From Dictyostelium discoideum (taxonomy: Eukaryota): a stretch of DNA of 64,000 bases. Below, in pieces: positions 1,213 to 23,615 of this stretch. Under the pieces are notes generated by a model. That model had not been told where the DNA came from and ran no database searches. It worked only from the letters and a program-made list of their open reading frames with translations. A program made the translations under genes and the position numbers. The DNA is taken from assembly GCA_000004695.1 (NCBI GenBank), contig CM000151.3, positions 832,001 to 896,000 of the forward strand, given 5' to 3'. Each line of letters begins with the position of its first letter. Within the stretch, counting starts at the first letter, position 1.

Positions 1213-1567
1213 TTAATTACAACCACAACTTGGATGTAAAATTGGATTTGTAATGGTACCAACTGTGTTTAAAACTGATCCCACAATTACACCAGTACCA
1301 ATTAAAACTCCACCAACAAGATTTCCTACTACATTTCCCAAAGTTGGTCCACCACATGGGCTATATTGAATTGAGTTTAATGATTGACTAGATGATGGTG
1401 ATGATGATGAGAATGAAACATTTTTTGATTTTGTAATTGATTTAACATTACCAATTGATGAGATTGAAGCTATAATAAATTAATATTAATATTTATAATT
1501 TTAAAAAATAAACAATTTAAAAACTATATTTTTTTAAATTTTATTATAAATTACCTAAGATTGTCAT
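1213..1567 (-). CDS. HssA/B-like (hssA/2C/7E family) small Gly/Ser-rich protein, copy A (solo). Exons 1555..1567 and 1213..1469, intron 1470..1554.
   Basis: On the minus strand a 13-nt exon ATGACAATCTTAG is followed by GTAATT, and the acceptor is TTATAG. The spliced ORF encodes [88 protein letters not shown] (89 aa). Confidence 0.7.
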
Positions 1568-2834: not shown

Positions 2835-3038
2835 AACTATCAATTAAGAAATAATGTGTTAATGGGGGTAATTATTGTGTGTTAATTAATCAACCGAATC
2901 CACCAAGGTTTTGATATGTATAAACTATTAAGTTAATACTTCATATAAATTTTTTTTTTTAAAATTTATATTGTTTCAGTTTAATTGTTCAAACACACAA
3001 TTAACCCCTCATTAACACATTATTTCCTAATTGATAGT
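2835..3038. promoter_or_regulatory. Bidirectional intergenic palindrome between divergent hssl copies B and C. Arms are about 2835-2889 and 2981-3038, with a conserved ~100-bp spacer.
   Basis: ACTATCAATTAAGAAATAATGTGTTAATGGGGGTAATTATTGTGTG is matched by the reverse complement of CACACAATTAACCCCTCATTAACACATTATTTCCTAATTGATAGT. G5/C5 cores in otherwise ~85% AT DNA. Confidence 0.6.
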
Positions 3039-3389
3039 AAATTTAAAGTATTTTTATTTATTTTTAAAGAATTTTTATTTATTCTACTCACACATCATAT
3101 TAAAATTTTTTTTTTTTTTTTTTTTTATTGTGTGGTATAATTTAATATATCTATTATACAAGAAAATAGTTTTTTGAAAATGAGATCTTTTGTGATCTAA
3201 ACAGTTAAATTTCTGAAAAAAAAGAATTTAATTATAATAATAAATTATTTGTTTTTTTTAAATTGATTTTTTTTTTTTTTAAATTTTTTTTTTTTCAAAA
3301 GTTCAAAATAAAAGTATAAATTCTAATTTTATTTCAATCATTATTTCATTAAATTAAACAATCAAAAAAATTTTAAATAAATTAATAAA

Positions 3390-3739
3390 ATGACACTCTT
3401 AGGTAAGTAATTAAATAATTAATTATAGTTTATTAAAAAATAATTTTATTAATTACTTATTTTTTAATATTAAAAAACTTAGCTTCAATCTCATCAATTG
3501 GTAATGTTAAATCAATTTCAAAATCAAATAATTTTTCATCATTATCAAACTCGTCATTACAATCATCAAACTCAATACAATGTGGTGGCTGCGGTGGTGG
3601 TAGTCCATTAATTGGTACTGTTGGTAATCTCGTCGGTGGTGTACTTGTCGGAACTGGTATTATTGTTGGTACTGTCATTGGAACTGTCAATGGTGTTGTT
3701 GGTGGTTTATTAAATGGACCAAACTGTGGATGTCATTAG
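3390..3739 (+). CDS. HssA/B-like protein, copy C. Exons 3390..3402 and 3483..3739, intron 3403..3482.
   Basis: ATGACACTCTTAG|GTAAGT ... CTTAG|CTTCAATC. The spliced product is [89 protein letters not shown] (89 aa). The 77-aa minus-strand ORF in the provided track is its antisense artefact. Confidence 0.75.
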
Positions 3740-3940
3740 AACTGTAAAATTATTTAAATTATAATATTTTGTAATCAAAAAAGTTTTTTTATAATAAATA
3801 ACTTTGTATTAATAAAAAATTAAATCCAAAAAAGACTTAATGTTTCATTTTTTATTTTTTTATAATTTTTTTATTTTATTTTTACAATATTGTAAATTAC
3901 AAAAAGAGATTGATTATTTATACTTTTTTAAATTAATTAC

Positions 3941-4225
3941 ACTGACTTTCAACAGTTCTAGCATTTAGAATTAAAATATCAATTTGATATTACTTATAAA
4001 ATTTAATTAACCAATCTTTTAATTTACTTTGTCAGTAATATCAATCGATTCTACTTGAACACCAATATCCAAACATTCTTTTTTACTTCTTCTAATATTT
4101 CAATTTCCTTCCAGTCAAACCAAACCTCTTCCAGGATGACGCACCTGTGATAACTATTGCTTTTGGTGTCGGAAAATTTGTTTTCTTTTTTTATAATTTA
4201 AAAAACTTAATATTGTATAAAATAA
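3941..4225 (-). pseudogene. Decayed, internally deleted relic of SDR exon 1.
   Basis: Collinear nucleotide similarity to 6655-7000 (ACTGACTTTCAACAGTTC.AGCATTT..AATTAAAATATCAATTT, then CACCTGTGATAACTATTGCTTTTGGTGT.GG.AAATTTGTTTTCTTTTTTTATAATTTAAAAAAC). It has gaps and no intact ORF. Confidence 0.5.
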
Positions 4226-4348: not shown

Positions 4349-4688
4349 TTAATGGCAACCACAGTTTGGACCACTTAATAAACCACCAACAACACCATTG
4401 ACAGTTCCAACGACAGTACCAAGAATAATACCAGTTCCGACAAGTACACCACCTACGAGATTACCAACAGTACCAATTAATGGACTACCCCCACCGCAGC
4501 CACATTGAATTGAATTTGATGATTGTAATGACGAGTTTGATAATGATGAAAAATTATTTGATTTTGAAATTGATTTAACATTACCAATTGATGAGATTGA
4601 AGCTATTTAAAAATAATATAAAATAATTAATTTTTAATTATTTTGTGTATATATTTTTAGATTTTAAAGACATACCTAAGATTGTCAT
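4349..4688 (-). CDS. HssA/B-like protein, copy D. Exons 4676..4688 and 4349..4602.
   Basis: Minus strand: ATGACAATCTTAG|GTATGT ... AAATAG|CTTCAATC. The 88-aa product ends [11 protein letters not shown]. It carries a 3-nt in-frame deletion relative to copy C (QCGCGGGSP). Confidence 0.7.
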
Positions 4689-4837: not shown

Positions 4838-5041
4838 AACTATCAATTAGGAAATAATGTGTTAGTGGGGGTAAATATTGTGTGTTAATTAATCAACCGA
4901 ATCTACCGAAGTTTTTATATGTATAAACTATTGTGTTAGTTCTTCATATAAATTTTTTTTTTTAAAATTTATATTGTTTCAGTTTAATTGTTCAAACACA
5001 CAATTAACCCCACATTAACACATTATTTCCTATTTGATAGT
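4838..5041. promoter_or_regulatory. Bidirectional intergenic palindrome between divergent hssl copies D and E.
   Basis: Arms are about 4838-4893 and 4984-5041 (GTGTTAGTGGGGGTAAATATTGTGTG and CACACAATTAACCCCACATTAACAC). Same spacer as the B/C unit. Confidence 0.6.
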
Positions 5042-5374
5042 AAATTTATATTATTATTATTTTTTTTTTTTTTTAGAAGTTTTATTTATTAACACATATT
5101 AATAATTTTTTTTTTTTTTGTGTGGTTTAATTTAGTATATCAATTATACAAGAAAATAATTTTTTGAAAATGAGATTTTTTGTGATTTAAACAGTTAAAT
5201 ATCTGAAAAAAAAAAGAATTTAATTATAAAAATAAATTATTTGTTTTTTTTTTAAATTAATTATATTTTTTAATTTTTTTTTTATTGAAAATAAAAGTAT
5301 AAATTCTAATTTTATTTTCAATCATTATTTCATTAAATCAAACAATCAAATAAACTTTAAAATAAATTAATAAA

Positions 5375-5721
5375 ATGACACTCTTAGGTAAATAATTAAA
5401 ATAAATTGTAGTTTATTAAAAAGTAATTTTATTAATTTATTTTATTTTATAAATTTAAAAAATTTAGCTTCAATCTCATCAATTGGTAATGTTAAATCAA
5501 TTTCAAAATCAAATAATTTTTCATCATTATCAAACTCATCATTACAATCATCAAACTCAATACAATGTGGTGGCTGCGGTGGTAGTCCATTAATTGGTAC
5601 TGTTGGTAATCTCGTAGGTGGTGTACTTGTCGGAACTGGTATTATTGTTGGTACTGTCGTTGGAACTGTCAATGGTGTTGTTGGTGGTTTATTAAGTGGT
5701 CCAAACTGTGGATGCCATTAA
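5375..5721 (+). CDS. HssA/B-like protein, copy E. Exons 5375..5387 and 5468..5721.
   Basis: ATGACACTCTTAG|GTAAAT ... TTTAG|CTTCAATC. The 88-aa product is ...[54 protein letters not shown]. Confidence 0.75.
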
Positions 5722-5871: not shown

Positions 5872-7063
5872 TTATTTATTATGAGTCTTAATTTTTTGAG
5901 AATTTAAATTTTTAACTGATGAGGAGGGACAATTTTCTCTTTTTGATTCATTTGTAGAATATCGAGAGTGATGAGAATAATGAGTTACTGGTTTCCTATA
6001 GTCTGGATATTTTGCAAGAGAATTTATAATAAAATTAGTGGCATCTCTTAAAGTTGGTGGAATTGTGGCAAAGAAATGAGATATACAATAAACTAAAGGT
6101 GGGCATGAAATTATTGCATCATTTCTACTAATACCATCTACAATGTATTTTGAAGCTTTGTCAGTTGTTATAGGTAGTAACATTGGTATATCTTTATAAT
6201 CCAAAGAATCAACTAATGGAGTATAAACAAAACCTGGTATTATTACTGAAACGCCAACACCTCTTGATGCTAAACCATTTCTAAGTATTAACCCAAATGA
6301 TTTTAGGTAACCTTTACTTGATGAATATCCTGCCATTGTATAATCAAAATATGGTGTAATACTTGACATCAAAACCAATTGACCAGATCCTCTTGATTCA
6401 AAGATTGGTACCATTGGTAAAACTGTATTCAAGGTTCCAATTACCTATAATAAATAATTTATTAATTAGTTTTAAAAGAATATCATTACTTTTTATATTT
6501 TTAAAATTATTTAAGATATTACATTTGTGTTTGTAACTGTTAATATTCTTTCAGTAAAATCTAATTCTTTTGGTAACATTGCTGGAATTTTTTTTTTAAA
6601 TATAAATAAATATATTAAGAAAACCAATTTTTTTTTTTTTAAAAAAGTAATTATACTGACTTTCAACAGTTCCAGCATTTGCAATTAAAATATCAATTTT
6701 ATATTTATTATCAAATTTAATTAACCAATCATATAATTTTTCTTTGTCAGTGACATCAATTGATTCAATTTCTACTTGAACACCAAGATCCAAACATTCT
6801 TTTTGAATTTCTTCTAATTTTTCAATGTTTCTTCCAGTTAAACCTAAAACCAAAGAATTATTGGTTTTTCTTTTTGCATATTCAAGTGCTATTCCTCTAC
6901 CAATACCAGATGATGCACCCGTGATAACTATTGCTTTTGGTGTTGGGAAATTTGTTTTCTTTTTTTTATAATTTAAAAAACCTAATATAGGATAAAATAT
7001 TAAAAGAATCATTGAACCAATTATATTGGTCAACAATAAAGATATATCAGTTAGCACTGCCAT
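5872..7063 (-). CDS. Short-chain dehydrogenase/reductase (classical SDR, N-terminal membrane anchor), paralogue 1. Exons 6661..7063, 6523..6581 and 5872..6444.
   Basis: Exon 1 carries a TM helix plus the Rossmann motif ITGASSGIGRGIALEYAKR and IANAG, with a GTCAGT donor. The 59-nt middle exon (acceptor TTCCAG) encodes MLPKELDFTERILTVTNTN, with a GTAATA donor. Exon 3 (acceptor TTATAG) encodes VIGTLNTVLPMVPIFESRGSGQLVLMSS...YSSSKGYLKSF, the catalytic S..YxxxK. Frame is continuous across both junctions, giving 344 aa. Confidence 0.7.
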
Positions 7064-7130
7064 TCTTATTATTAATTTTTTTTGAAAAATTTAAATTAAA
7101 AAAAAATTTAAATTAATAAAAAAAATTTAA

Positions 7131-7760: not shown

Positions 7761-8107
7761 CTAATGACATCCACAGTTTGGACCACTTAATAAACCACCA
7801 ACAACACCATTGACAGTTCCAACAACAGTACCAAGAATAATACCAGTTCCAACAAGTACTCCACCGACGAGATTACCTACGGTACCAATTAATGGACTAC
7901 CACCACCGCAGCCACATTGAATTGAATTTGATGATTGTAATGACGAGTTTGATAATGATGAAAAATTATTTGATTTTGAAATTGATTTAACATTACCAAT
8001 TGTTGAGATTGAAGCTAAGTTTTTAATATTAAAAAATAAATAATTAATAAAATTTTTTTTTAATAAACTACTATTAATTATTTTAATTACTTACCTAAGA
8101 GTGTCAT
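7761..8107 (-). CDS. HssA/B-like protein, copy F. Exons 8095..8107 and 7761..8014.
   Basis: Minus strand: ATGACACTCTTAG|GTAAGT ... ACTTAG|CTTCAATCTCAACAATTGG. The 88-aa product ends CGCH*. Confidence 0.7.
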
Positions 8108-8246: not shown

Positions 8247-8447
8247 AACTATCAATTAGGAAATAATGTGTTGGTGGGGGTAAATATTGTGTGTTAATTA
8301 ATCAACCGAATCTACCGAAGTTTTTATATGTATAAACTATCGTGTTAGTACTTCATATAAACTTTTTTTTTAAATTTATATGTTTCAGTTTAATTGTTCA
8401 AACACACAATTAACCCCACAATAACATATTATTTCCTAATTGATAGT
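8247..8447. promoter_or_regulatory. Bidirectional intergenic palindrome between divergent hssl copies F and G.
   Basis: Arms are about 8247-8305 and 8388-8447 (GTGTTGGTGGGGGTAAATATTGTGTG and CACACAATTAACCCCACAATAACAT). Confidence 0.6.
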
Positions 8448-8761
8448 AAATTTATATTATTATTATTATTTTTTAAAAAAAGTTTTATTTATTCTTCTCA
8501 CACACATTAAAAATAATAATATTTTTTTTTTTGTGAGGTTTAATTTAATATATCGATTATATAAGAAAATAATATTTTGAAAATAAGATTTTTTGTGATT
8601 TAAACAGTTAAATATCTGAAAAAAAGAATTTAATTATAATAATTAATTATTTGTTTTTTTTAATTTTTTTATTTTTTTTATTCAAAATAAAAGTATAAAT
8701 TCTAATTTTATTTTCAATCATTAAATTAAACAATCAAATAAACTCTAAATAAATTAATAAA

Positions 8762-9112
8762 ATGACACTCTTAGGTAAGTAATTAAAATAATTAATAGTA
8801 GTTGATTAAAAAATAATTTTATTAATTATTTATTTTTTAATATTAAAAAACTTAGCTTCAATCTCAACAATTGGTAATGTTAAATCAATTTCAAAATCAA
8901 ATAATTTTTCATCATTATCAAACTCATCATTACAATCATCAAATTCAATTCAATGCGGTGGCTGCGGTGGTGGTAATTCATTAATTGGTACTGTTGGAGG
9001 TCTTGTTGGTGGTGTACTTGTTGGAACTGGTATTATTGTTGGTACTGTCATTGGAACTGTTAATGGTGTTGTTGGTGGTTTATTAAGTGGTCCAAGCTGT
9101 GGATGCCATTAA
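8762..9112 (+). CDS. HssA/B-like protein, copy G. Exons 8762..8774 and 8856..9112.
   Basis: ATGACACTCTTAG|GTAAGT ... CTTAG|CTTCAATC. The 89-aa product is ...[55 protein letters not shown]. Confidence 0.75.
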
Positions 9113-9261
9113 AATAATGTTTTTTAGAATAAATAAATTTGTATATATAAAAAATGAAATTCAAAAAATACCTAACACCTTTCTTTTTTTTTTTTTATTA
9201 TTTGTTTTTAATTTTTTTATATAATTACTAAAATTGAATTTTTTTTTTTTTTTTTTAAAAA

Positions 9262-9365
9262 TTAATTACACTGACTTCCAACTGTTCCAGTATTTGCAAT
9301 TGATCAATTTGATGTTTATCATCCAAATTTAATTAACTGATCTTTATATTTTCTTTGTCAGTGAC
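9262..9365 (-). pseudogene. Short relic of SDR exon 1, between hssl copies G and H.
   Basis: ACTGACTTCCAACTGTTCCAGTATTTGCAATTGATCAATTTGAT...TTTCTTTGTCAGTGACATCA is collinear with 6655-6760 of the intact SDR gene. No ORF. Confidence 0.4.
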
Positions 9366-9528
9366 ATCATAAAAATTCTGAATTTGTAGTTATAAAATGT
9401 AACATGTAAAGATTAACAAATGAATTCAAAAATAATTTTTTTTTTTTTTTATTAATTTAATTTTTACAGTTTATTTGAATTATTTTTAGTATTTGTTATA
9501 TATTTTTTAATTTAAATAATTTTACATT

Positions 9529-9870
9529 TTAATGGCAACCACAGTTTGGACCACTTAATAAACCACCAACAACACCATTGACAGTTCCAACGACAGTACC
9601 AACAATAATACCAGTTCCTACAAGTACACCACCCACAAGATTACCAACAGTACCAATTAATGGACTACCACCACCACAGCCACCACATTGAATTGAATTT
9701 GATGATTGTAATGACGAGTTTGATAATGATGAAAAATTATTTGATTTTGAAATTGATTTAACATTACCAATTGATGAGATTGAAGCTATTTAATAATAAA
9801 ATAAAATAATTAATTTTTAATTATTTTGTGTATATTTTTTAGATTTTAAAGACATACCTAAGATTGTCAT
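9529..9870 (-). CDS. HssA/B-like protein, copy H. Exons 9858..9870 and 9529..9785.
   Basis: Minus strand: ATGACAATCTTAG|GTATGT ... AAATAG|CTTCAATC. The 89-aa product ends CGCH*. Confidence 0.7.
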
Positions 9871-10008
9871 TTTTTTAATTTTGTTAATTGTAAATTTTAA
9901 TAGTTTGATTTAATGATTTTTTTAAAAAAAAAAAAACCTTTTATATCATAATTTTTAAATTTTTTTATTTGTTTTTAATTTATCTTACAAAAAAAAAAAA
10001 TAATAATA

Positions 10009-10210
10009 AACTATCAATTAGGAAATTTATGTGTTAGTGGGGGTAAATATTGTGTTAATTAATCAACCGAATCTACCGAAGTTTTTATATGTATAAACTA
10101 TCGTGTTAGTACTTCATATAAACTTTTTTTTTAAATTTATATTGTTTCAGTTTAATTGTTCAAACACACAATTAACCTCACAATAACATATTATTTCCTA
10201 ATAGATAGTA
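10009..10210. promoter_or_regulatory. Bidirectional intergenic palindrome between divergent hssl copies H and I.
   Basis: Arms are about 10009-10062 and 10152-10210 (GTGTTAGTGGGGGTAAATATTGTGTTAATTAA and CACACAATTAACCTCACAATAACAT). Confidence 0.6.
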
Positions 10211-10562
10211 TATTTTTATTATTATTTTTTTTTTAAAAAAAGTTTTGTTTTTTCTTCTCACACATATCATATAAAAAATAATAATAATAATTTTTTTTTT
10301 TTTTTTGTGTGGTTTAATTTAATATATCGATTATACAAGAAAATCGTTTTTTGAAAATGAGATTTTTTGTGATTTAAACAGTTAAATATCTGAAAAAAAG
10401 AATTTAATTATAATAATTGATTATTTGTTTTTTTTTTTAAAATTAATTATATTATTTAATTTTTTTTTTTTATTCAAAATAAAAGTATAAATTCTAAATT
10501 TATTTTCAATCATTATTTCATTAAATCAAACAATCAAATAAACTTAAAAATAAATTAATAAA

Positions 10563-10912
10563 ATGACACTCTTAGGTAAATAATTATAATTAATTATAGT
10601 TTATTAAAAAAGTAATTTTATTAATTATTTTATTTTATAATATTAAAAAACTTAGCTTCAATCTCATCAATTGGTAATGTTAAATCAATTTCAAAATCAA
10701 ATAATTTTTCATCATTATCAAACTCATCATTACAATCATCAAATTCAATTCAATGTGGTGGCTGCGGTGGTGGTAGTCCATTAATTGGTACTGTTGGTAA
10801 TCTCGTCGGTGGAGTACTTGTTGGAACTGGTATTATTGTTGGTACTGTTGTTGGAACTGTCAATGGAGTTGTTGGAGGTTTATTAAGTGGTCCAAACTGT
10901 GGATGTCATTAA
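10563..10912 (+). CDS. HssA/B-like protein, copy I. Exons 10563..10575 and 10656..10912.
   Basis: ATGACACTCTTAG|GTAAAT ... CTTAG|CTTCAATC. The 89-aa product is ...[55 protein letters not shown]. Confidence 0.75.
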
Positions 10913-11066: not shown

Positions 11067-12242
11067 TTATGCCTCTTTATTTTTTTGAGAATTTGAATTC
11101 ATAGCTGGTGAGGAGGGACAATCCTCTCTTTTTGATTCATTTGTTGAATATTGAGAGTGATGAGAATAATGAGTTACTGGTTTACTATAATCTGGATATT
11201 TCAAAAGAGAATTTGAAATGAAATTAGTGGCATCTCTTAAAGTTGGTGGAATTGTGGCAACGAAATGAGATATACAATAAATTAAAGGTGGGAATGAAAT
11301 TATTGCATCATTTCTACTAATGCCATCGACAATGTATTTTGAAGCTTTGTCAGTTGTTATAGGTAGTAACATAGGTATATCCTTATAATCCAAAGAATCA
11401 ACTAATGGAGTATAAATAAAACCTGGTGTTATTACTGAAACGCCAACGCCTCTTGATGCTAAACCATTTCTAAGTATTAACCCAAATGATTTTATGTAAC
11501 CTTTACTTGATGAATATCCTGCCATTACATAATCAAAATATGGTGTAATACTTGACATCAAAACCAATTGACCAGATCCTCTTGATTCAAAGATTGGTAC
11601 CATTGGTAAAACTGTATTCAATGTTCCAATTACCTATAATAATTTATTAATTAGTTTTAAAAGAATATCGTTACTTTATATTCAAATTATTTAAGATATT
11701 ACATTTGTGTTTGCAACTGTTAATATTCTTTCAGTAAAATCTAATTCTTTTGGTAAAATTGCTATGAAAATTATTTTTTTTAAATAATTAATACAAGTAA
11801 ACCTTTTTTTTTTTTTTAAAAAAAATTATGTATACTGACTTTCAATAGTTCCAGCATTTGCAATTAAAATATCAATTTTATATTTATTGTCAAATTTAAT
11901 TAACCAATCATTTAATTTTTCTTTGTCAGTGACATCGATTGATTCAATTTCTACTTGAACACCAAGACCCAAACATTCTTTTTGAATTTCTTCTAATTTT
12001 TCAATGTTTCTTCCAGTTAAACCTAAAACCAAAGAGTTATTTTTTTTTCTTTTTGCATATTCAAGTGCTATTCCTCTACCAATACCAGATGATGCACCCG
12101 TGATAACTATTGCTTTTGGTGTTGGGAAATTTGTTTTCTTTTTTTTATAATTTAAAAAACCTAATATAGGATAAAATATTAATAGAATTATTGAACCAAT
12201 TATATTGGTCAACAATAATGATATATCAGTTAAGACTCCCAT
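11067..12242 (-). CDS. Short-chain dehydrogenase/reductase, paralogue 2. Exons 11840..12242, 11703..11761 and 11067..11633.
   Basis: Exon-intron structure is identical to paralogue 1 (GTCAGT donor; 59-nt middle exon with TCATAG acceptor encoding ILPKELDFTERILTVANTN; GTAATA donor; TTATAG acceptor). Motifs TGASSGIGRGIALEYAKR, IANAG and YSSSKGYIKSF are present. About 342 aa. Confidence 0.7.
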
Positions 12243-12655: not shown

Positions 12656-13699
12656 ATGTTTAAACAAATAATTATATTTATAGCTTTAATACTTTTTATT
12701 TTTAATCAATTGGATATAGTATCAAGTTGTAGATGTGATTCAGATTGTGAAGATTGTAACGAATGTACATTAGATACCTGCTCCCGTGGATGTTGTTCAA
12801 ATATTGAAATAGATTGTGCTGATGATAATCCATGTACCAAAGATTCATGTTCCAAAGAGACTGGTTGTATTCATGAAGATATTAATTGTGATGATGGTGA
12901 TGCTTGTACAACTGATTCATGTTCTCAATTATCTGGTTGTTGTAATTTACCAATCTCTTGTGATGCTTGTACAACCGATTCTTGTTTAAATTCCACTGGT
13001 TGTTGTAGTTTACCAATCTCTTGTGATGATGGTGATGCTTGTACAACTGATTCATGTTCAAAGAAAACTGGTTGCAGTAATGTTCCAATTGCATGTGATG
13101 ATGGCAATGCTTGTACCAATGATGGTTGTTCAAAGGAAACTGGTTGCACTCATTCTAATATCGATTGTGATGATGGTGATGCTTGTACAACTGATTCATG
13201 TTCAAAGAAAACTGGTTGCTGTAATGTTCCAATTGCTTGTGACGATGGTAATGCTTGTACCACTGATGGCTGTTCCAAGGAAACTGGTTGCACACATTCT
13301 AATATCGACTGTGATGATGGTGATGCTTGCACTACTGATTCATGTTCTAAAAAGACTGGTTGCAGTAATATACCAATGTCTTGTAATGATAATGATGCTT
13401 GCACAACCGATTCATGTTCAAACTCTACTGGTTGTTGTAATTCCCCGATTTCATGCGATGATGATCATGCTTGTACCACCGATAGTTGTTCTAAAGAAAC
13501 TGGTTGTTGCAATTCCCCAATCTCTTGTGATGATGGTGATTTGTGTACCACCGACAGTTGTTCTAAAGAAACTGGTTGTTGCCATACTCCAGTTTCATGC
13601 GATGATGGAGAAGATTGTACAACTGACACTTGTTCATCAAAATTAGGATGTGTTCATACCTATATCACTATTTCTCAACCAAAACCTGTTGATTGTTGA
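12656..13699 (+). CDS. Secreted cysteine-rich protein built from about 13 tandem ~24-aa Dictyostelium CTDC-type repeats (CDDGDACTTDSCSKETGC...).
   Basis: Single 347-aa ORF with an N-terminal signal peptide (MFKQIIIFIALILFIFNQLDIVSS). The repeats fit the Dicty_CTDC (slime-mold repeat) pattern D.CT.D.C....GC. Overlapping ORFs in other frames are artefacts of the nucleotide repeat. Confidence 0.75.
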   Translation: MFKQIIIFIALILFIFNQLDIVSSCRCDSDCEDCNECTLDTCSRGCCSNIEIDCADDNPCTKDSCSKETGCIHEDINCDDGDACTTDSCSQLSGCCNLPISCDACTTDSCLNSTGCCSLPISCDDGDACTTDSCSKKTGCSNVPIACDDGNACTNDGCSKETGCTHSNIDCDDGDACTTDSCSKKTGCCNVPIACDDGNACTTDGCSKETGCTHSNIDCDDGDACTTDSCSKKTGCSNIPMSCNDNDACTTDSCSNSTGCCNSPISCDDDHACTTDSCSKETGCCNSPISCDDGDLCTTDSCSKETGCCHTPVSCDDGEDCTTDTCSSKLGCVHTYITISQPKPVDC

Positions 13700-19073: not shown

Positions 19074-19108
<35 letters not shown>

Positions 19109-19192
19109 TCTTGCAACAATTTGTTTTTTTTTTTTTTCAAATTTATTTTTTATTTTTTTTTTTTCCTCAATCTTAAAAAAACAATCATCAAA

Positions 19193-20713
19193 ATGGATAA
19201 TTTATTTAGATTAGTATTTAAAAATGTAATTATTAGAAATCAAATATTTAGGTTTGTTAGAATTTTAAACAAAGATTTAATTGTGAAGAAATATAATCAG
19301 TGTAATATGGGCTGGATTATAAAAAATGGTCACTTTCATCTTTTATTGTATAAACTTAAAAAACATATTAAAAGGGACCAATTCTCAGAAGAATTATTTT
19401 ATAGATTTTTACAAGGTAATAGTGAATTACATTTACTTAAAGATATGTTTAAAATATTCCCACAGTTTTTACCGTCAACTCCAATTGCTGAAAATATATT
19501 AATTGAACATTGTTCAAGTTTAAAACCAACTAAAAACCTATCACCCTCTTCTTCTTCATATTCTCCAAACTTTTCTTCTACTTCAGTATCTTCTTCTTCA
19601 TCTGATTCTTCTTTTTCTTCAATTGATTCTTCTTCTTCTTCTTCTTCTTCTTCCAATCAAGAATTTTGTGAACAATCATATGATTATGATTCCTCTTCTC
19701 CATATGATTCTAGTTTAGATATTATAAAATATTTAACAAATGAATTAAATATAAAAGTAACAAATAAAGCAATAAATAATGCATGTGCAGCTAATAATTG
19801 TAAAATTGTGGGATATTATCTTGGTTTAAATCAACTCGATAGATACAAAGGGAATGAAATTGATATTTATGATAATTGTAATATTGGTACTTTATTTTGC
19901 TCATTGAGGGGTAAAGATTTTCAATTATTTAAATTTATTTTTGAAAATAATCCAAATTTAACTTCTCAATGTATAAGCTATGACAAATTTATAAAATTAA
20001 TGGTAGCAACAGGTGATATCCAATTCATTATTCACTTTGGTAGAGTTCAAGGACCTTCTTATAAACCTCCACAATTACAACCATATATGATCGCAAAATC
20101 ATCATTAAGTATAATTAAATACCTATGCTCATTTTTAAAAATAAATGACCCTATGTATTATAAATCATTATTATATGCTATTGAAAAAAGGAAAAATCAA
20201 AGCGAGAGATTCCTACTTTTAAAATTCCTTATTGAAGAGTTTAGAATCTATGAAAAGGTTGAAGGTAGTACAGTGGTGCAAGAAGTAGTTTACTCATTCT
20301 GCGGTATCGGTGATTTAGATTGCATAATATACCTCCGTGATTTTTACTTAACTCTACCACAAAATCATAGTTTTAAGTTTTTAATTCCACGTTCCGCCTT
20401 GGATGTATCAATATCTTCAAAAAATTTTCATGTAACTAATTGGATTTTAGAAAATACAAATGTATGTTGTTCAATTAATGGTTTAAGGTACCTTTGCAAA
20501 AATATGGCCAATCTTAAGCATATACTTGATAGAATATTAATAAAATTTGTGCCCATTCGTGCAATCTCAAGTAAAATGCTTTTGGATGCAATGCATTCAA
20601 CAAATAGAATTGCTCATGATAAAGAAAATTTTGATTATCTAGCTTCTTTTTTACCAAATCATTTAATCCCTACTTTTCCAATTGAAACCTCAATAGAGGA
20701 TTATGACTATTAA
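19193..20713 (+). CDS. Hypothetical protein (506 aa) with a central poly-Ser tract. No recognised domain.
   Basis: ORF in the same frame as track ORF 19106..20713. The first credible ATG (AAAATGG context) is at 19193, since the upstream part is a translated poly-T tract. It is the intact paralogue of pseudogene 17531..18921. Confidence 0.6.
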   Translation: MDNLFRLVFKNVIIRNQIFRFVRILNKDLIVKKYNQCNMGWIIKNGHFHLLLYKLKKHIKRDQFSEELFYRFLQGNSELHLLKDMFKIFPQFLPSTPIAENILIEHCSSLKPTKNLSPSSSSYSPNFSSTSVSSSSSDSSFSSIDSSSSSSSSSNQEFCEQSYDYDSSSPYDSSLDIIKYLTNELNIKVTNKAINNACAANNCKIVGYYLGLNQLDRYKGNEIDIYDNCNIGTLFCSLRGKDFQLFKFIFENNPNLTSQCISYDKFIKLMVATGDIQFIIHFGRVQGPSYKPPQLQPYMIAKSSLSIIKYLCSFLKINDPMYYKSLLYAIEKRKNQSERFLLLKFLIEEFRIYEKVEGSTVVQEVVYSFCGIGDLDCIIYLRDFYLTLPQNHSFKFLIPRSALDVSISSKNFHVTNWILENTNVCCSINGLRYLCKNMANLKHILDRILIKFVPIRAISSKMLLDAMHSTNRIAHDKENFDYLASFLPNHLIPTFPIETSIEDYDY

Positions 20714-20960
20714 TAATAATAAAAATAATATTAATAAATAATAATAATGCATCTATCCAAAAAACATAAAATTTACCCCCACTAACACATTATTTCCTAT
20801 TGATATTTTTTGTAATAAAAATTAAAATAATAAATTTAATTACTTTAAATGAAATAAAAAATTTATTTATATTTAGTTCCTATATGAAATGATACTAATA
20901 GATTTGTTGTTTTTTTTTCTTTTTAAATTTAATATTTTATAAACTTTTTTTTTTTTTTTT

Positions 20961-20961
20961 T

Positions 20962-21048
<87 letters not shown>

Positions 21049-21050
21049 TT
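20961..21050. repeat. (TTTA)n microsatellite, about 22 units, in the 3' flank of the minus-strand gene that ends at 21054.
   Basis: Direct reading. Confidence 0.9.
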
Positions 21051-21053
21051 TCA

Positions 21054-22011
21054 TTAATGATTTGAAGAGCAACAAGAAAGTAAAGTTTTTAATTGAGTTT
21101 GAATGACTTCATTAGTTTGTTGTAAAAGTGAATTTCTATTTGCTAATAATTCCTTACTATTTTTTAATCTTGATGTATCCTCCATTAGTTGAGATAAAGA
21201 GGTAGTTGCTTTTGCACCAAGATTTTCCAACTCTTGGAGTTCTTTTCTCAATTTTTTGTTTTCATTAAATAATACCTCTCTTTCTCTTTCCATTCTTTCA
21301 AGTTTTGTAACTAAAGAACGCAAACTAAATGATAATGATACAAGTGATGAATTTGTAGTTGATCCATTTGAATAGTCATCATAATTATTTCCGGAATCAA
21401 ATGAATTTGAATTTCTTTTTCTTTTTCCATTTTCATTTTGTTCGTTATAATCTTGTTGATTATTATAAAATTGTTGTGTTTGTTGATGATGTTGTTGTTG
21501 TTGTTGTTGCTGTTGTTGTTGCTGTTGTGGTGGTGGTTGATGTTGTTGTTGCTGTTGTTGTTGCTGTTGTTGTTGTTGTTGTTGAGTGTGTTGGTATTGA
21601 TGATGTTGTTGGTATTGTTGTTGTTGTTGTTGTTGTTGCTGTTGCTGTTGTTGGTGTTGTTGTTGTTGAGGTCCATTTAAATGAGAGGGGAAAATTGAAT
21701 GTTGTTGAGATGATGTTGGTGACTGTTGCTGTTGTTGATGATGTTGTTGTTGCTGCTGTTGTCCACCATTTATCATGCTATTATACTGTAAGAATATTTT
21801 ATCATTTCCTTTATTATACAAATGTTGTTGAGTTTGAATTTGTGTTGGTTGATTTGATTTTTGTTTATCCTCCATTGTCTGAGTTCTTTTTCTACCTCTG
21901 TTAGCAGCTGTTGTCGTTGTAGTGGTTGTTGTTGTCGTTTGCTGTTGATTTGAATTTGATGGTGAATAGGAATTATTATTATTACCATTACTATTATTAT
22001 TATTATTACTA

Positions 22012-22081
<70 letters not shown>

Positions 22082-23611
22082 TACTATTATTTGTATTATT
22101 ATTGGTATTATTGGTATTATTATTATTATTGTTATTGATATTGTTACTGTTAATGTTATTATTGCTATTGTTATTATTATTTGGTGCAATTTTTGGTAAA
22201 ACTACAATAGGTTGAGAAGTTGAATTATTATTATTATTATTTGATTGTGATATTTGTTGAAGTTTATTTGATAGATATTGATGATCAGTTTCAATATTTC
22301 TTGAAGAGATTTTATTTCCATCTCTAGCTTTATCGATCATAACCAAAGTATTTTCATTTTCTTCATCATTTTCATCGTCATAATTCATTTGAGAATTGTT
22401 TTGGTGATGTTGATTTTGGATATATTGTTGTTGTTGTTGTTGTGCTTGTTGTTGATATTGTTGTGCTTGTTGTTGTAATTGTTGTTGTTGATACAATGAT
22501 CTTCCATTATTACTCACTTTAATATTTCTATTTACAAGAGACTCGACTGAAGATAAAATTTCAATATTATTTCTACTATTATTATTATTGTTGTTGTTGT
22601 TGTAACTATTATTATTGGTATTAAACTCTCTATCTCTATCCCTATCTCTTTCTCTATCTCTATCTCTTTCTCTTTCTCTATCTCTATCTCTATCTCTTTC
22701 TCTTTCTCTTTCTCTTTCTCTTTCTCTTTCTCTTTCTCTTTCTCTTTCTCTTTCTCTTTCTCTTTCTCTTTCTCTTTCTCTTTCTCTTTCTCTATCCCTA
22801 TCTCTTTCTTTTGATTGGTTGGGCGAATTATTGTAATTATTATTATTGTTGTTGTTGTTATTATTATTATTATTATTTTTATTATTATTATTTTGTACTG
22901 ACACAGTTGTTGTATTAGGTGTAGAATGTGATGATGATGGACTATTCAATTGATTTAATATTTTAATTGTTGAATCATTTTCAAAATTATTAGTTTGTTC
23001 GGAGGATGGGGAATCTTCTCTATTTGTGTTGTTGTAGTTGTTATTATTTGATTTTTTGGATGATTGTTCATAATCATCGTGGAGGTCTTCAATTAGGTTT
23101 CTATTGAGTTTATTGGAACCATTAACACCTTTATTTGATCTTTCGTCATCATTATCATCAATCTCCATTTGTTCTCTCTCTTTTTCATTTTTTTCTTTTT
23201 CTTCATCATCACTATTATTTTCATTTTTATTATTATTATTATTATTGTTATTGTTATTATTATTATTATTATTATTGTTGTTGTTGTTGTTGTTGTTGTT
23301 GTTATTAATAATTTCGCTACTATCATCGTCATCAAAAGCAATTTCCTTTTCTTTATCCTTTTCTATGTCTCTTTCTCTTTCTCTTTCTTTTTCTTTTTCT
23401 TCTTTTTCACTTTCTCTTTCTTTTTCTTTTTCTTTTTCTTTTTCTTTTTCTTTTTCTTTTTCTTTTTCTTTTTCTTTTTCTCTTTCATTCTCTTGAGGAG
23501 GTTGTGGAGAATTTGGATCTTTTTGTGAATCATTTTCACCACTTATTTTTGAATCAATTTCTTGGGCATCTTCATTTTTGTTATTAATTGAAGCTGTAAC
23601 AGTTTCGATTT

Positions 23612-23615
<4 letters not shown>
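21054..23615 (-). CDS. Low-complexity nuclear-type protein (853 aa). It has (EK)n, (RE/RD)n, polyN and polyQ tracts and a C-terminal coiled-coil region.
   Basis: Single long minus-strand ORF. (TCTCTT)n and (TTTTTC)n nucleotide repeats encode the RE and EK runs. The C-terminus LVTKLERMEREREVLFNENKKLRKELQELENLGAK is heptad-like. Both strands give spurious ORFs here. Confidence 0.55.

Follow-up and report, generated by a model that had tools for sequence, protein, structure and literature searches.

Genes and gene pairs of the cluster

The window analysed here (i.e., the whole stretch of 64 kb, with ~80% A+T) carries nine small two-exon genes of the PF05710 (HssA/2C/7E) family within its first 12 kb, as found by tblastn, gene models and Pfam. 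One of them stands alone (1213-1567, minus strand), and the other eight form four head-to-head pairs, here called units 1 to 4, with less than 1 kb between partners and ATG-to-ATG distances of 705, 687, 655 and 693 bp. The locus is the sigN Group 2 (hssA-like) cluster of Dictyostelium discoideum, since the intron and protein lengths of the seven intact paired genes (introns of 71, 72, 79, 79, 79, 79 and 80 nt; proteins of 88, 88, 88, 89, 89, 89 and 89 aa) match one for one those that Vicente et al. (2008, PMC2257962; their Table 1) list for sigN6, 7, 8, 9, 11, 12 and 14, with a constant 1-nt offset in intron counting. Exon 1 of the Group 2 genes is 13 nt long, the extent of the cluster agrees with the published ~10 kb with sigN10 adjacent, and the lone gene fits sigN10 in both its identity (62%) and its position adjoining Group 2. 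The names of the left and right genes of each unit result from combining these lengths with the statement on complementary promoters in PMC2257962:

2356-2685, minus strand: left gene of unit 1, disrupted, of hssl/sigN type, likely pseudogene
3390-3739, plus strand: sigN6, right gene of unit 1 (13-nt exon 1, intron, exon 2; 89 aa; PF05710)
4349-4688, minus strand: sigN12, left gene of unit 2
5375-5721, plus strand: sigN7, right gene of unit 2
7761-8107, minus strand: sigN11, left gene of unit 3, with a right-type intron
8762-9112, plus strand: sigN8, right gene of unit 3
9529-9870, minus strand: sigN14, left gene of unit 4
10563-10912, plus strand: sigN9, right gene of unit 4, whose upstream region is the published lacZ reporter

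The left gene of unit 1 reads MTILASIS*, with a TGA at codon 9, and has a 12-bp deletion in exon 2. It is a disrupted eighth member of Group 2 and likely a pseudogene, and this disruption is the reason why PMC2257962 counts seven genes and gives sigN6 no partner.

Short-chain dehydrogenase genes (SDR; adh_short), all on the minus strand, alternate with the sigN pairs (3930-4190, 5888-7100, ~9260-9400 and 11067-12242). Two of these are intact copies, 92-96% identical and 5.18 kb apart, and the other two are decayed fragments, in one of which KAIVITGASS can still be read together with stops and a deletion. From this interleaving it follows that what was ancestrally repeated, four times over, consisted of one sigN pair and one SDR gene. 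PMC2257962 traces Group 2 back to two inverted genes in tandem that were duplicated successively. The cluster is adjoined by the gene of a CTDC protein (12656-13699, plus strand; 347 aa, 12 Dictyostelium CTDC repeats, PF00526, E = 1.8e-97).

Anatomy of the inverted repeat

The intergenic region of each pair contains an element made of two inverted arms and the spacer between them, and the full element is present in four copies in the window, with 93-100% identity:

2836-3038: copy 1 (left arm 2836-2882, spacer 2883-2991, right arm 2992-3038), between the disrupted hssl gene and sigN6
4839-5041: copy 2 (arms 4839-4885 and 4995-5041), between sigN12 on the left and sigN7 on the right
8248-8447: copy 3 (arms 8248-8294 and 8401-8447), between sigN11 on the left and sigN8 on the right
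10010-10209: copy 4 (arms 10010-10054 and 10163-10209), between sigN14 on the left and sigN9 on the right

The arms are ~47 nt long, the consensus of the left one being ACTATCAATTAGGAAATAATGTGTTAGTGGGGGTAAATATTGTGTGT and the right one being its imperfect reverse complement. Left and right arms match in 43 of 49, 41 of 48, 40 of 48 and 35 of 47 aligned columns in copies 1 to 4, respectively (with 2-4 gap columns), which makes the arm pair of copy 4 the most degraded. The spacer between them, of 106-109 bp, is non-self-complementary (54-57% identity to its own reverse complement). As a repeated inverted repeat, this is far beyond chance: an arm 26-mer is matched seven times in the window at up to three mismatches, where 0.00 matches are expected, and an arm 18-mer five times, where 0.07 are.

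An earlier, sequence-only reading of this DNA had pointed to four palindromic elements, with long inverted arms around a conserved spacer, and it placed them correctly to within about one base. The arm and spacer strings that it quoted are found in copies 2-4, and differ by several bases from copy 1. It had also described GGGGG/CCCCC cores, of which the first half is accurate, in that the G5 runs of the elements are all in the left arms, on the plus strand; no right arm, on the other hand, has a C5 run, as it reads CCCC in units 1-3 and CCTC in unit 4. G5 runs were also called very rare, but they are no rarer than composition predicts, with 10 observed in the window as against 8.99 +/- 3.66 in dinucleotide shuffles; five of these 10 belong to this arm family. 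Nor is the element at the centre of the promoter. It is 151 bp away from the left ATG and 352 bp away from the right one, and hence occupies the left half of the ~700-bp intergenic region, the right-gene side holding an extra ~200 bp with a smaller box pair of its own and a conserved block.

This second, inverted CA/GT box pair (CTCACACA, a T-run and TGTGTGG; 3088-3135 in unit 1) is confined to the side of the right gene, where each of the four units has retained it (5080-5125 (5119), ~8500-8540 and 10260-10312 (10306) in the others), so that extra G-box-like sites lie nearer the right gene. The spacer has two peculiarities of its own. A small AT-only palindrome, ATATAAATTT(T)nAAATTTATAT (2944-2975, and e.g., 4947-4977 in copy 2), is conserved in the four units and lies ~20 bp to one side of the midpoint of the large inverted repeat. 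At the spacer start (2890-2908 and paralogues) there is a direct repeat, ACCGAATCT ACCGAAG, unusually G+C-rich for the window, which units 2-4 preserve unchanged, whereas unit 1, i.e., the unit that flanks the disrupted gene, has an altered form (ACCAAG).

GBF-type boxes in the arms

The arms contain heptamers of the KGKGKGK type, at the following positions:

2863-2882, plus strand: GBF-type heptamer pair in the left arm of copy 1 (TGGGGGT at 2863, TGTGTGT at 2876)
4866 and 4879, plus strand: left-arm heptamers of copy 2
8275 and 8288, plus strand: left-arm heptamers of copy 3
10038, plus strand: the only left-arm heptamer of copy 4
2993-3011, minus strand: GBF-type heptamers in the right arm of copy 1 (TGTGTGT at 2993, its partner degraded to TGAGGGG)
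4996 and 5008, minus strand: right-arm heptamers of copy 2
8402 and 8414, minus strand: right-arm heptamers of copy 3
10164, minus strand: the only right-arm heptamer of copy 4

Two perfect heptamers ~13 bp apart are thus seen in the left arms of units 1-3 and in the right arms of units 2-3, and one perfect plus one degraded heptamer in each of the remaining three arms. The density of heptamers in the four intergenic regions, which are paralogues and count as effectively one observation, is 6.2/kb, compared to 0.64/kb elsewhere in the window and to 0.9/kb when low-GC bins are taken. Matches to DUSE ([AT]CCCA[CT]AA), SRF/CArG (CC(A/T)6GG) and MEF2 (CTA(A/T)4TAG) were also looked for in the four intergenic regions and none was found. 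The end of the arm, CTATCAATTAG, exceeds the length of a MEF2 site by one base, and a GATA core, present at the arm tips, is too common a motif to count (120 on one strand).

Both the palindromic layout and the paired GBF-type boxes were already described in 2008, so what was re-discovered here from raw sequence is a known feature. [quoted passage not shown] G-rich boxes, closely spaced and in two pairs ("regions A and B"), are reported there to match the GBF response element KGKGKGK, and the two arms fit these regions as the text describes them. The same source reports that Group 2 genes are induced at 10 h (10-14 h), that a sigN9 intergenic/upstream fragment drives lacZ in prestalk cells, and, by citation of a microarray study, that sigN12 is GBF-dependent, this being the one gene of the seven for which such dependence is reported. 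The published sigN9 promoter-lacZ fragment, which reads out one direction (that of sigN9), maps to 9871-10562 in the window and contains element copy 4. Between the published promoter and the one analysed here (same locus, same feature) nothing essential differs. The literature that we searched contained no follow-up work on the function of the Group 2 boxes and no report of GBF binding to them.

GBF is reported to bind G-box/CA-rich elements in post-aggregative genes (Hjorth et al. 1990; Schnitzler et al. 1994, cited in PMC2257962). As in these elements, the arm boxes come as paired half-sites matching (T/G)G(T/G)G(T/G)G(T/G), and, as with their targets, which are induced at the mound stage, one gene of this cluster (sigN12) is the one reported to be GBF-dependent. 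The consensus match suggests that GBF could likewise bind the arm boxes. The conserved arm, however, is at ~47 nt far longer than a G-box pair and its outer 25 nt have no G-box character.

Related loci in other genomes

Protein searches with a SigN protein, and then with its match, returned one D. dimigraforme protein, and its contig, the one related locus compared here, holds a divergent hssl pair (positions 9460-10727), in which the left gene and its upstream region correspond to sigN10. The sigN10 orthologue is therefore divergently paired with another hssl gene in D. dimigraforme, whereas sigN10 has no divergent partner in D. discoideum. Upstream of sigN10, the two species share an identical 22-nt footprint, GATAATAAATGATTTCATTTTT, and both have a GGTGTGT box next to the anchors CCTTTT and CACAGATTAAA, which are likewise conserved. 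The 47-nt arm is absent from the D. dimigraforme divergent intergenic region, which does contain an inverted GGTGTGT/GGTGGGT pair, 19 bp apart, these being the only two heptamers within 2 kb. G-boxes hence look like a general feature of these hssl promoters, whilst the 200-bp palindrome is, as far as the compared sequences indicate, specific to the Group 2 expansion of D. discoideum. A further sequence, TTGAAAATGAGAT, is common to the upstream region of sigN10 (1771-1790) and the conserved block on the right-hand side of Group 2 promoters (3172-3190 and paralogues), and the similar GGATGAGAT occurs at 10022-10040 in the D. dimigraforme locus; this motif may be an older promoter element of the family.

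Neither arm nor element has a copy in the 20.7 kb of D. dimigraforme or the 21.8 kb of Heterostelium that were searched, and an exact 25-mer of the arm has 0 matches in metagenome contigs. Flanking-gene synteny was followed through a DDX31-like helicase (best match in Heterostelium album, 69% identity), and no hssl gene lies near that homologue. Within D. discoideum, the one contig available from another strain (GCA_054883475.1) is identical over the unit-1 intergenic region, and hence uninformative on polymorphism.

The sequence-only reading had suggested checking whether the motif marks all hssl pairs. The element is absent from sigN10, from the D. dimigraforme divergent pair and from the Group 1 pairs, which PMC2257962 describes as not palindromic, and therefore it is not required for hssl expression generally.

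A proposed shared regulatory module

We consider it probable that the two genes of each head-to-head pair in sigN Group 2 share one ~200-bp element as their upstream regulatory module. Its mirror symmetry would come from an ancestral head-to-head duplication of a gene with its promoter, and the resulting pair, along with the neighbouring short-chain dehydrogenase gene, would then have been tandemly duplicated four times, which explains why there are four near-identical copies. Each ~47-nt arm would be a composite cis-regulatory unit. In its inner half, ~13 bp separate two half-sites of G-box character (KGKGKGK), one reading TGGGGGT/TGTGGGG and the other TGTGTGT, which are of the type recognised by GBF, the zinc-finger activator that turns on post-aggregative genes, and its outer ~25 nt (ACTATCAATTAGGAAATAATG), equally conserved, would presumably be bound by a second, putative factor. 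Activators on the two arms would drive a TATA-containing core promoter on each side, so that both genes would be induced together ~10 h into development and expressed in prestalk cells. We infer that the arms are the responsible elements and that both genes of a pair make use of them; the suggestion that the arms are protein-binding sites in a bidirectional promoter, already made in the sequence-only reading, agrees with the sequence and with PMC2257962, where they are proposed as putative GBF sites.

Several observations count against this explanation. Conservation of the spacer equals or exceeds that of the arms, which does not fit a model of 'arms only'. Copy 1 was kept in spite of flanking a disrupted gene. 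Copy 4, the one in the only promoter fragment tested, has the weakest arms, with one perfect heptamer in each. Finally, a solo arm lies in an intergenic region between two 3' ends, with no promoter nearby.

Classic bidirectional promoters with shared upstream activating regions include those of yeast GAL1-GAL10 and of the histone H2A-H2B pairs. The sigN pairs resemble them in having head-to-head genes less than 1 kb apart with activator sites between the two core promoters. They differ from them in having two mirror-image copies of the activator module, the promoter having been duplicated along with the gene, and in that the module is markedly nearer one gene (151 bp vs 352 bp).

Conservation and duplication history

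This architecture could have arisen without any function of the arms. The inverted repeat may be merely what was left over from the head-to-head duplication of gene and promoter, and the four copies may look conserved only through recent tandem duplication or homogenisation by gene conversion. Indeed, the units are 85-96% identical along their whole length, some introns and intergenic blocks included (right intron 91%, block 3126-3260 93%, right TATA/5'UTR 96%), the arms (93-95% identical among the four units) are matched by the spacer (95%), arm changes are not compensatory, and the arms of copy 4 have decayed. Conversion between partners is also evident in unit 3, where the sigN11 intron (8016-8094) is 95% identical to that of its partner (8775-8855), as opposed to 64-68% in the other units, which we take to show that the two genes of this pair have undergone gene conversion or recombined with each other. 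Since the copies are recent paralogues, possibly homogenised in this way, high identity among them is weak evidence for selection.

The comparison within and around the element, however, gives a different picture. Inside a unit, only the arms and the 5'UTR/exon 1 can still be aligned between the two halves of the promoter, and left and right arms are still 74-88% identical where introns are 64-68%. This contrast suggests constraint on the arms. Among units, arms and spacer are conserved at the level of the exons (95-96%) and have almost no indels, whereas the segments adjoining it are far more decayed and indel-rich (78-87% identity, with 20-55% of columns gapped), and the left intron is down to 78%. 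In addition, genes expressed with this timing have a known activator, whose recognition sequence the G-box heptamers match. For these reasons, a purely neutral leftover seems to us rather unlikely, and the shared regulatory module remains the reading that we prefer.

A solo arm outside the cluster

A profile built from nine arm sequences, when run over the 64 kb, finds the eight arms of the four elements and one solo copy only:

20762-20806, minus strand: solo left-type arm (AATATCAA-TAGGAAATAATGTGTTAGTGGGGGTAAATTTTATGTTT; E = 3e-11)

This solo arm lies ~10 kb from the cluster, between the 3' ends of two convergent ORFs (19106-20713, plus strand, and 21054-23615, minus strand), and the same convergent arrangement is found in independent gene calls of the locus (L003). 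It begins and ends within a few nt of where the arms of the inverted repeat do, and its divergence is similar to that seen among the units. Its location, away from any hssl gene, speaks against a strict association of the motif with hssl pairs. A solo arm between convergent genes is a new observation. Extended homology around it, as a relic promoter or gene would show, was considered and rejected, given that 42% of control AT-rich segments score as well or better. A long (TTTA)n microsatellite occupies 20960-21050 of the window.

Since the boundaries of the arm hardly change between its left, right and solo occurrences, it is tempting to see in its ~45 nt a discrete cis-regulatory cassette (the G-box pair plus the second site) subject to copy-and-paste, i.e., something beyond a mere stretch of duplicated promoter, although this strikes us as improbable. 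A related and equally doubtful idea, to which we give a small chance, is that the element or its arm derives from non-autonomous foldback or MITE-like DNA inserted upstream of an ancestral sigN gene; it may possibly have been co-opted since as an enhancer, with the solo arm as a dispersed remnant. The element is short, has no ORF and ends in inverted repeats of ~47 nt, much like MITE/foldback elements, e.g., the Dictyostelium repeat thug-S mentioned in PMC4894637 and PMC6161686, with which it shares, in general traits, a size of ~200 bp, the lack of an ORF, long terminal inverted repeats and hairpin potential. In copies 1-3 both ends can be read as flanked by TAA (TAA/CTATC...GATAG/TAA), and the left-type solo arm, 10 kb off in an unrelated 3'-3' region, has matching boundaries and no significant homology in its flanks.

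Unlike such elements, however, this one has no dispersed full copies within the 64 kb, whereas many copies in unrelated contexts characterise a MITE, and its target-site duplication is ambiguous: the TAA reading requires that a complementary terminal A/T pair be excluded, TAA occurs at 4.5% of positions and is thus not significant here, and copy 4 does not show these flanks. No further copy, full or partial, turned up in the window or in the D. dimigraforme and Heterostelium sequences searched (20.7 and 21.8 kb), nor any exact match in the metagenome collection, and segmental duplication accounts for the four full copies, which leaves one insertion at most.

It is, finally, very improbable that the palindrome works by forming structures, be it a cruciform extruded under supercoiling, as the sequence-only reading had envisaged, or a long hairpin RNA (i.e., a small-RNA precursor): single strands do fold well beyond shuffles (DNA -43.5 kcal/mol, z = -10.4; RNA -69.9 kcal/mol, z = -10.8), as any inverted repeat would, but the arms are 74-88% identical around a loop of 106-109 nt rather than near-perfect around a short spacer, the two hairpins come out at ~134-169 kcal/mol less stable than the duplex in a nearest-neighbour estimate, the hairpin energy is not maintained (-27 kcal/mol in copy 4 vs -43 to -45 in the others), none of the 71 predicted pairs is compensatory (variable arm pairs changed on one side only, breaking or weakening the pair), no Rfam family matches even at E <= 1, and the element region contains no DrnB-dependent miRNA candidate locus of the one published table consulted, which leaves cruciform and hairpin readings unsupported. 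No tRNA was found in the element either.

Conclusions

The element itself is of little new value, its architecture having been published in 2008. What this work adds to PMC2257962 is the exact limits of the arms, the lack of C5 in the right ones and the off-centre position of the element, as well as the conservation of the spacer at the level of exons, the lack of covariation, the disrupted eighth gene and the solo arm outside the cluster. The mirror-duplicated layout permits a clean test of the arms and their G-boxes as working elements. The solo arm, in turn, raises the question of regulatory cassettes moving around the D. discoideum genome and, if further dispersed copies were to exist genome-wide, these would point to a small mobile or templated-insertion element spreading GBF-responsive enhancers in Dictyostelium.
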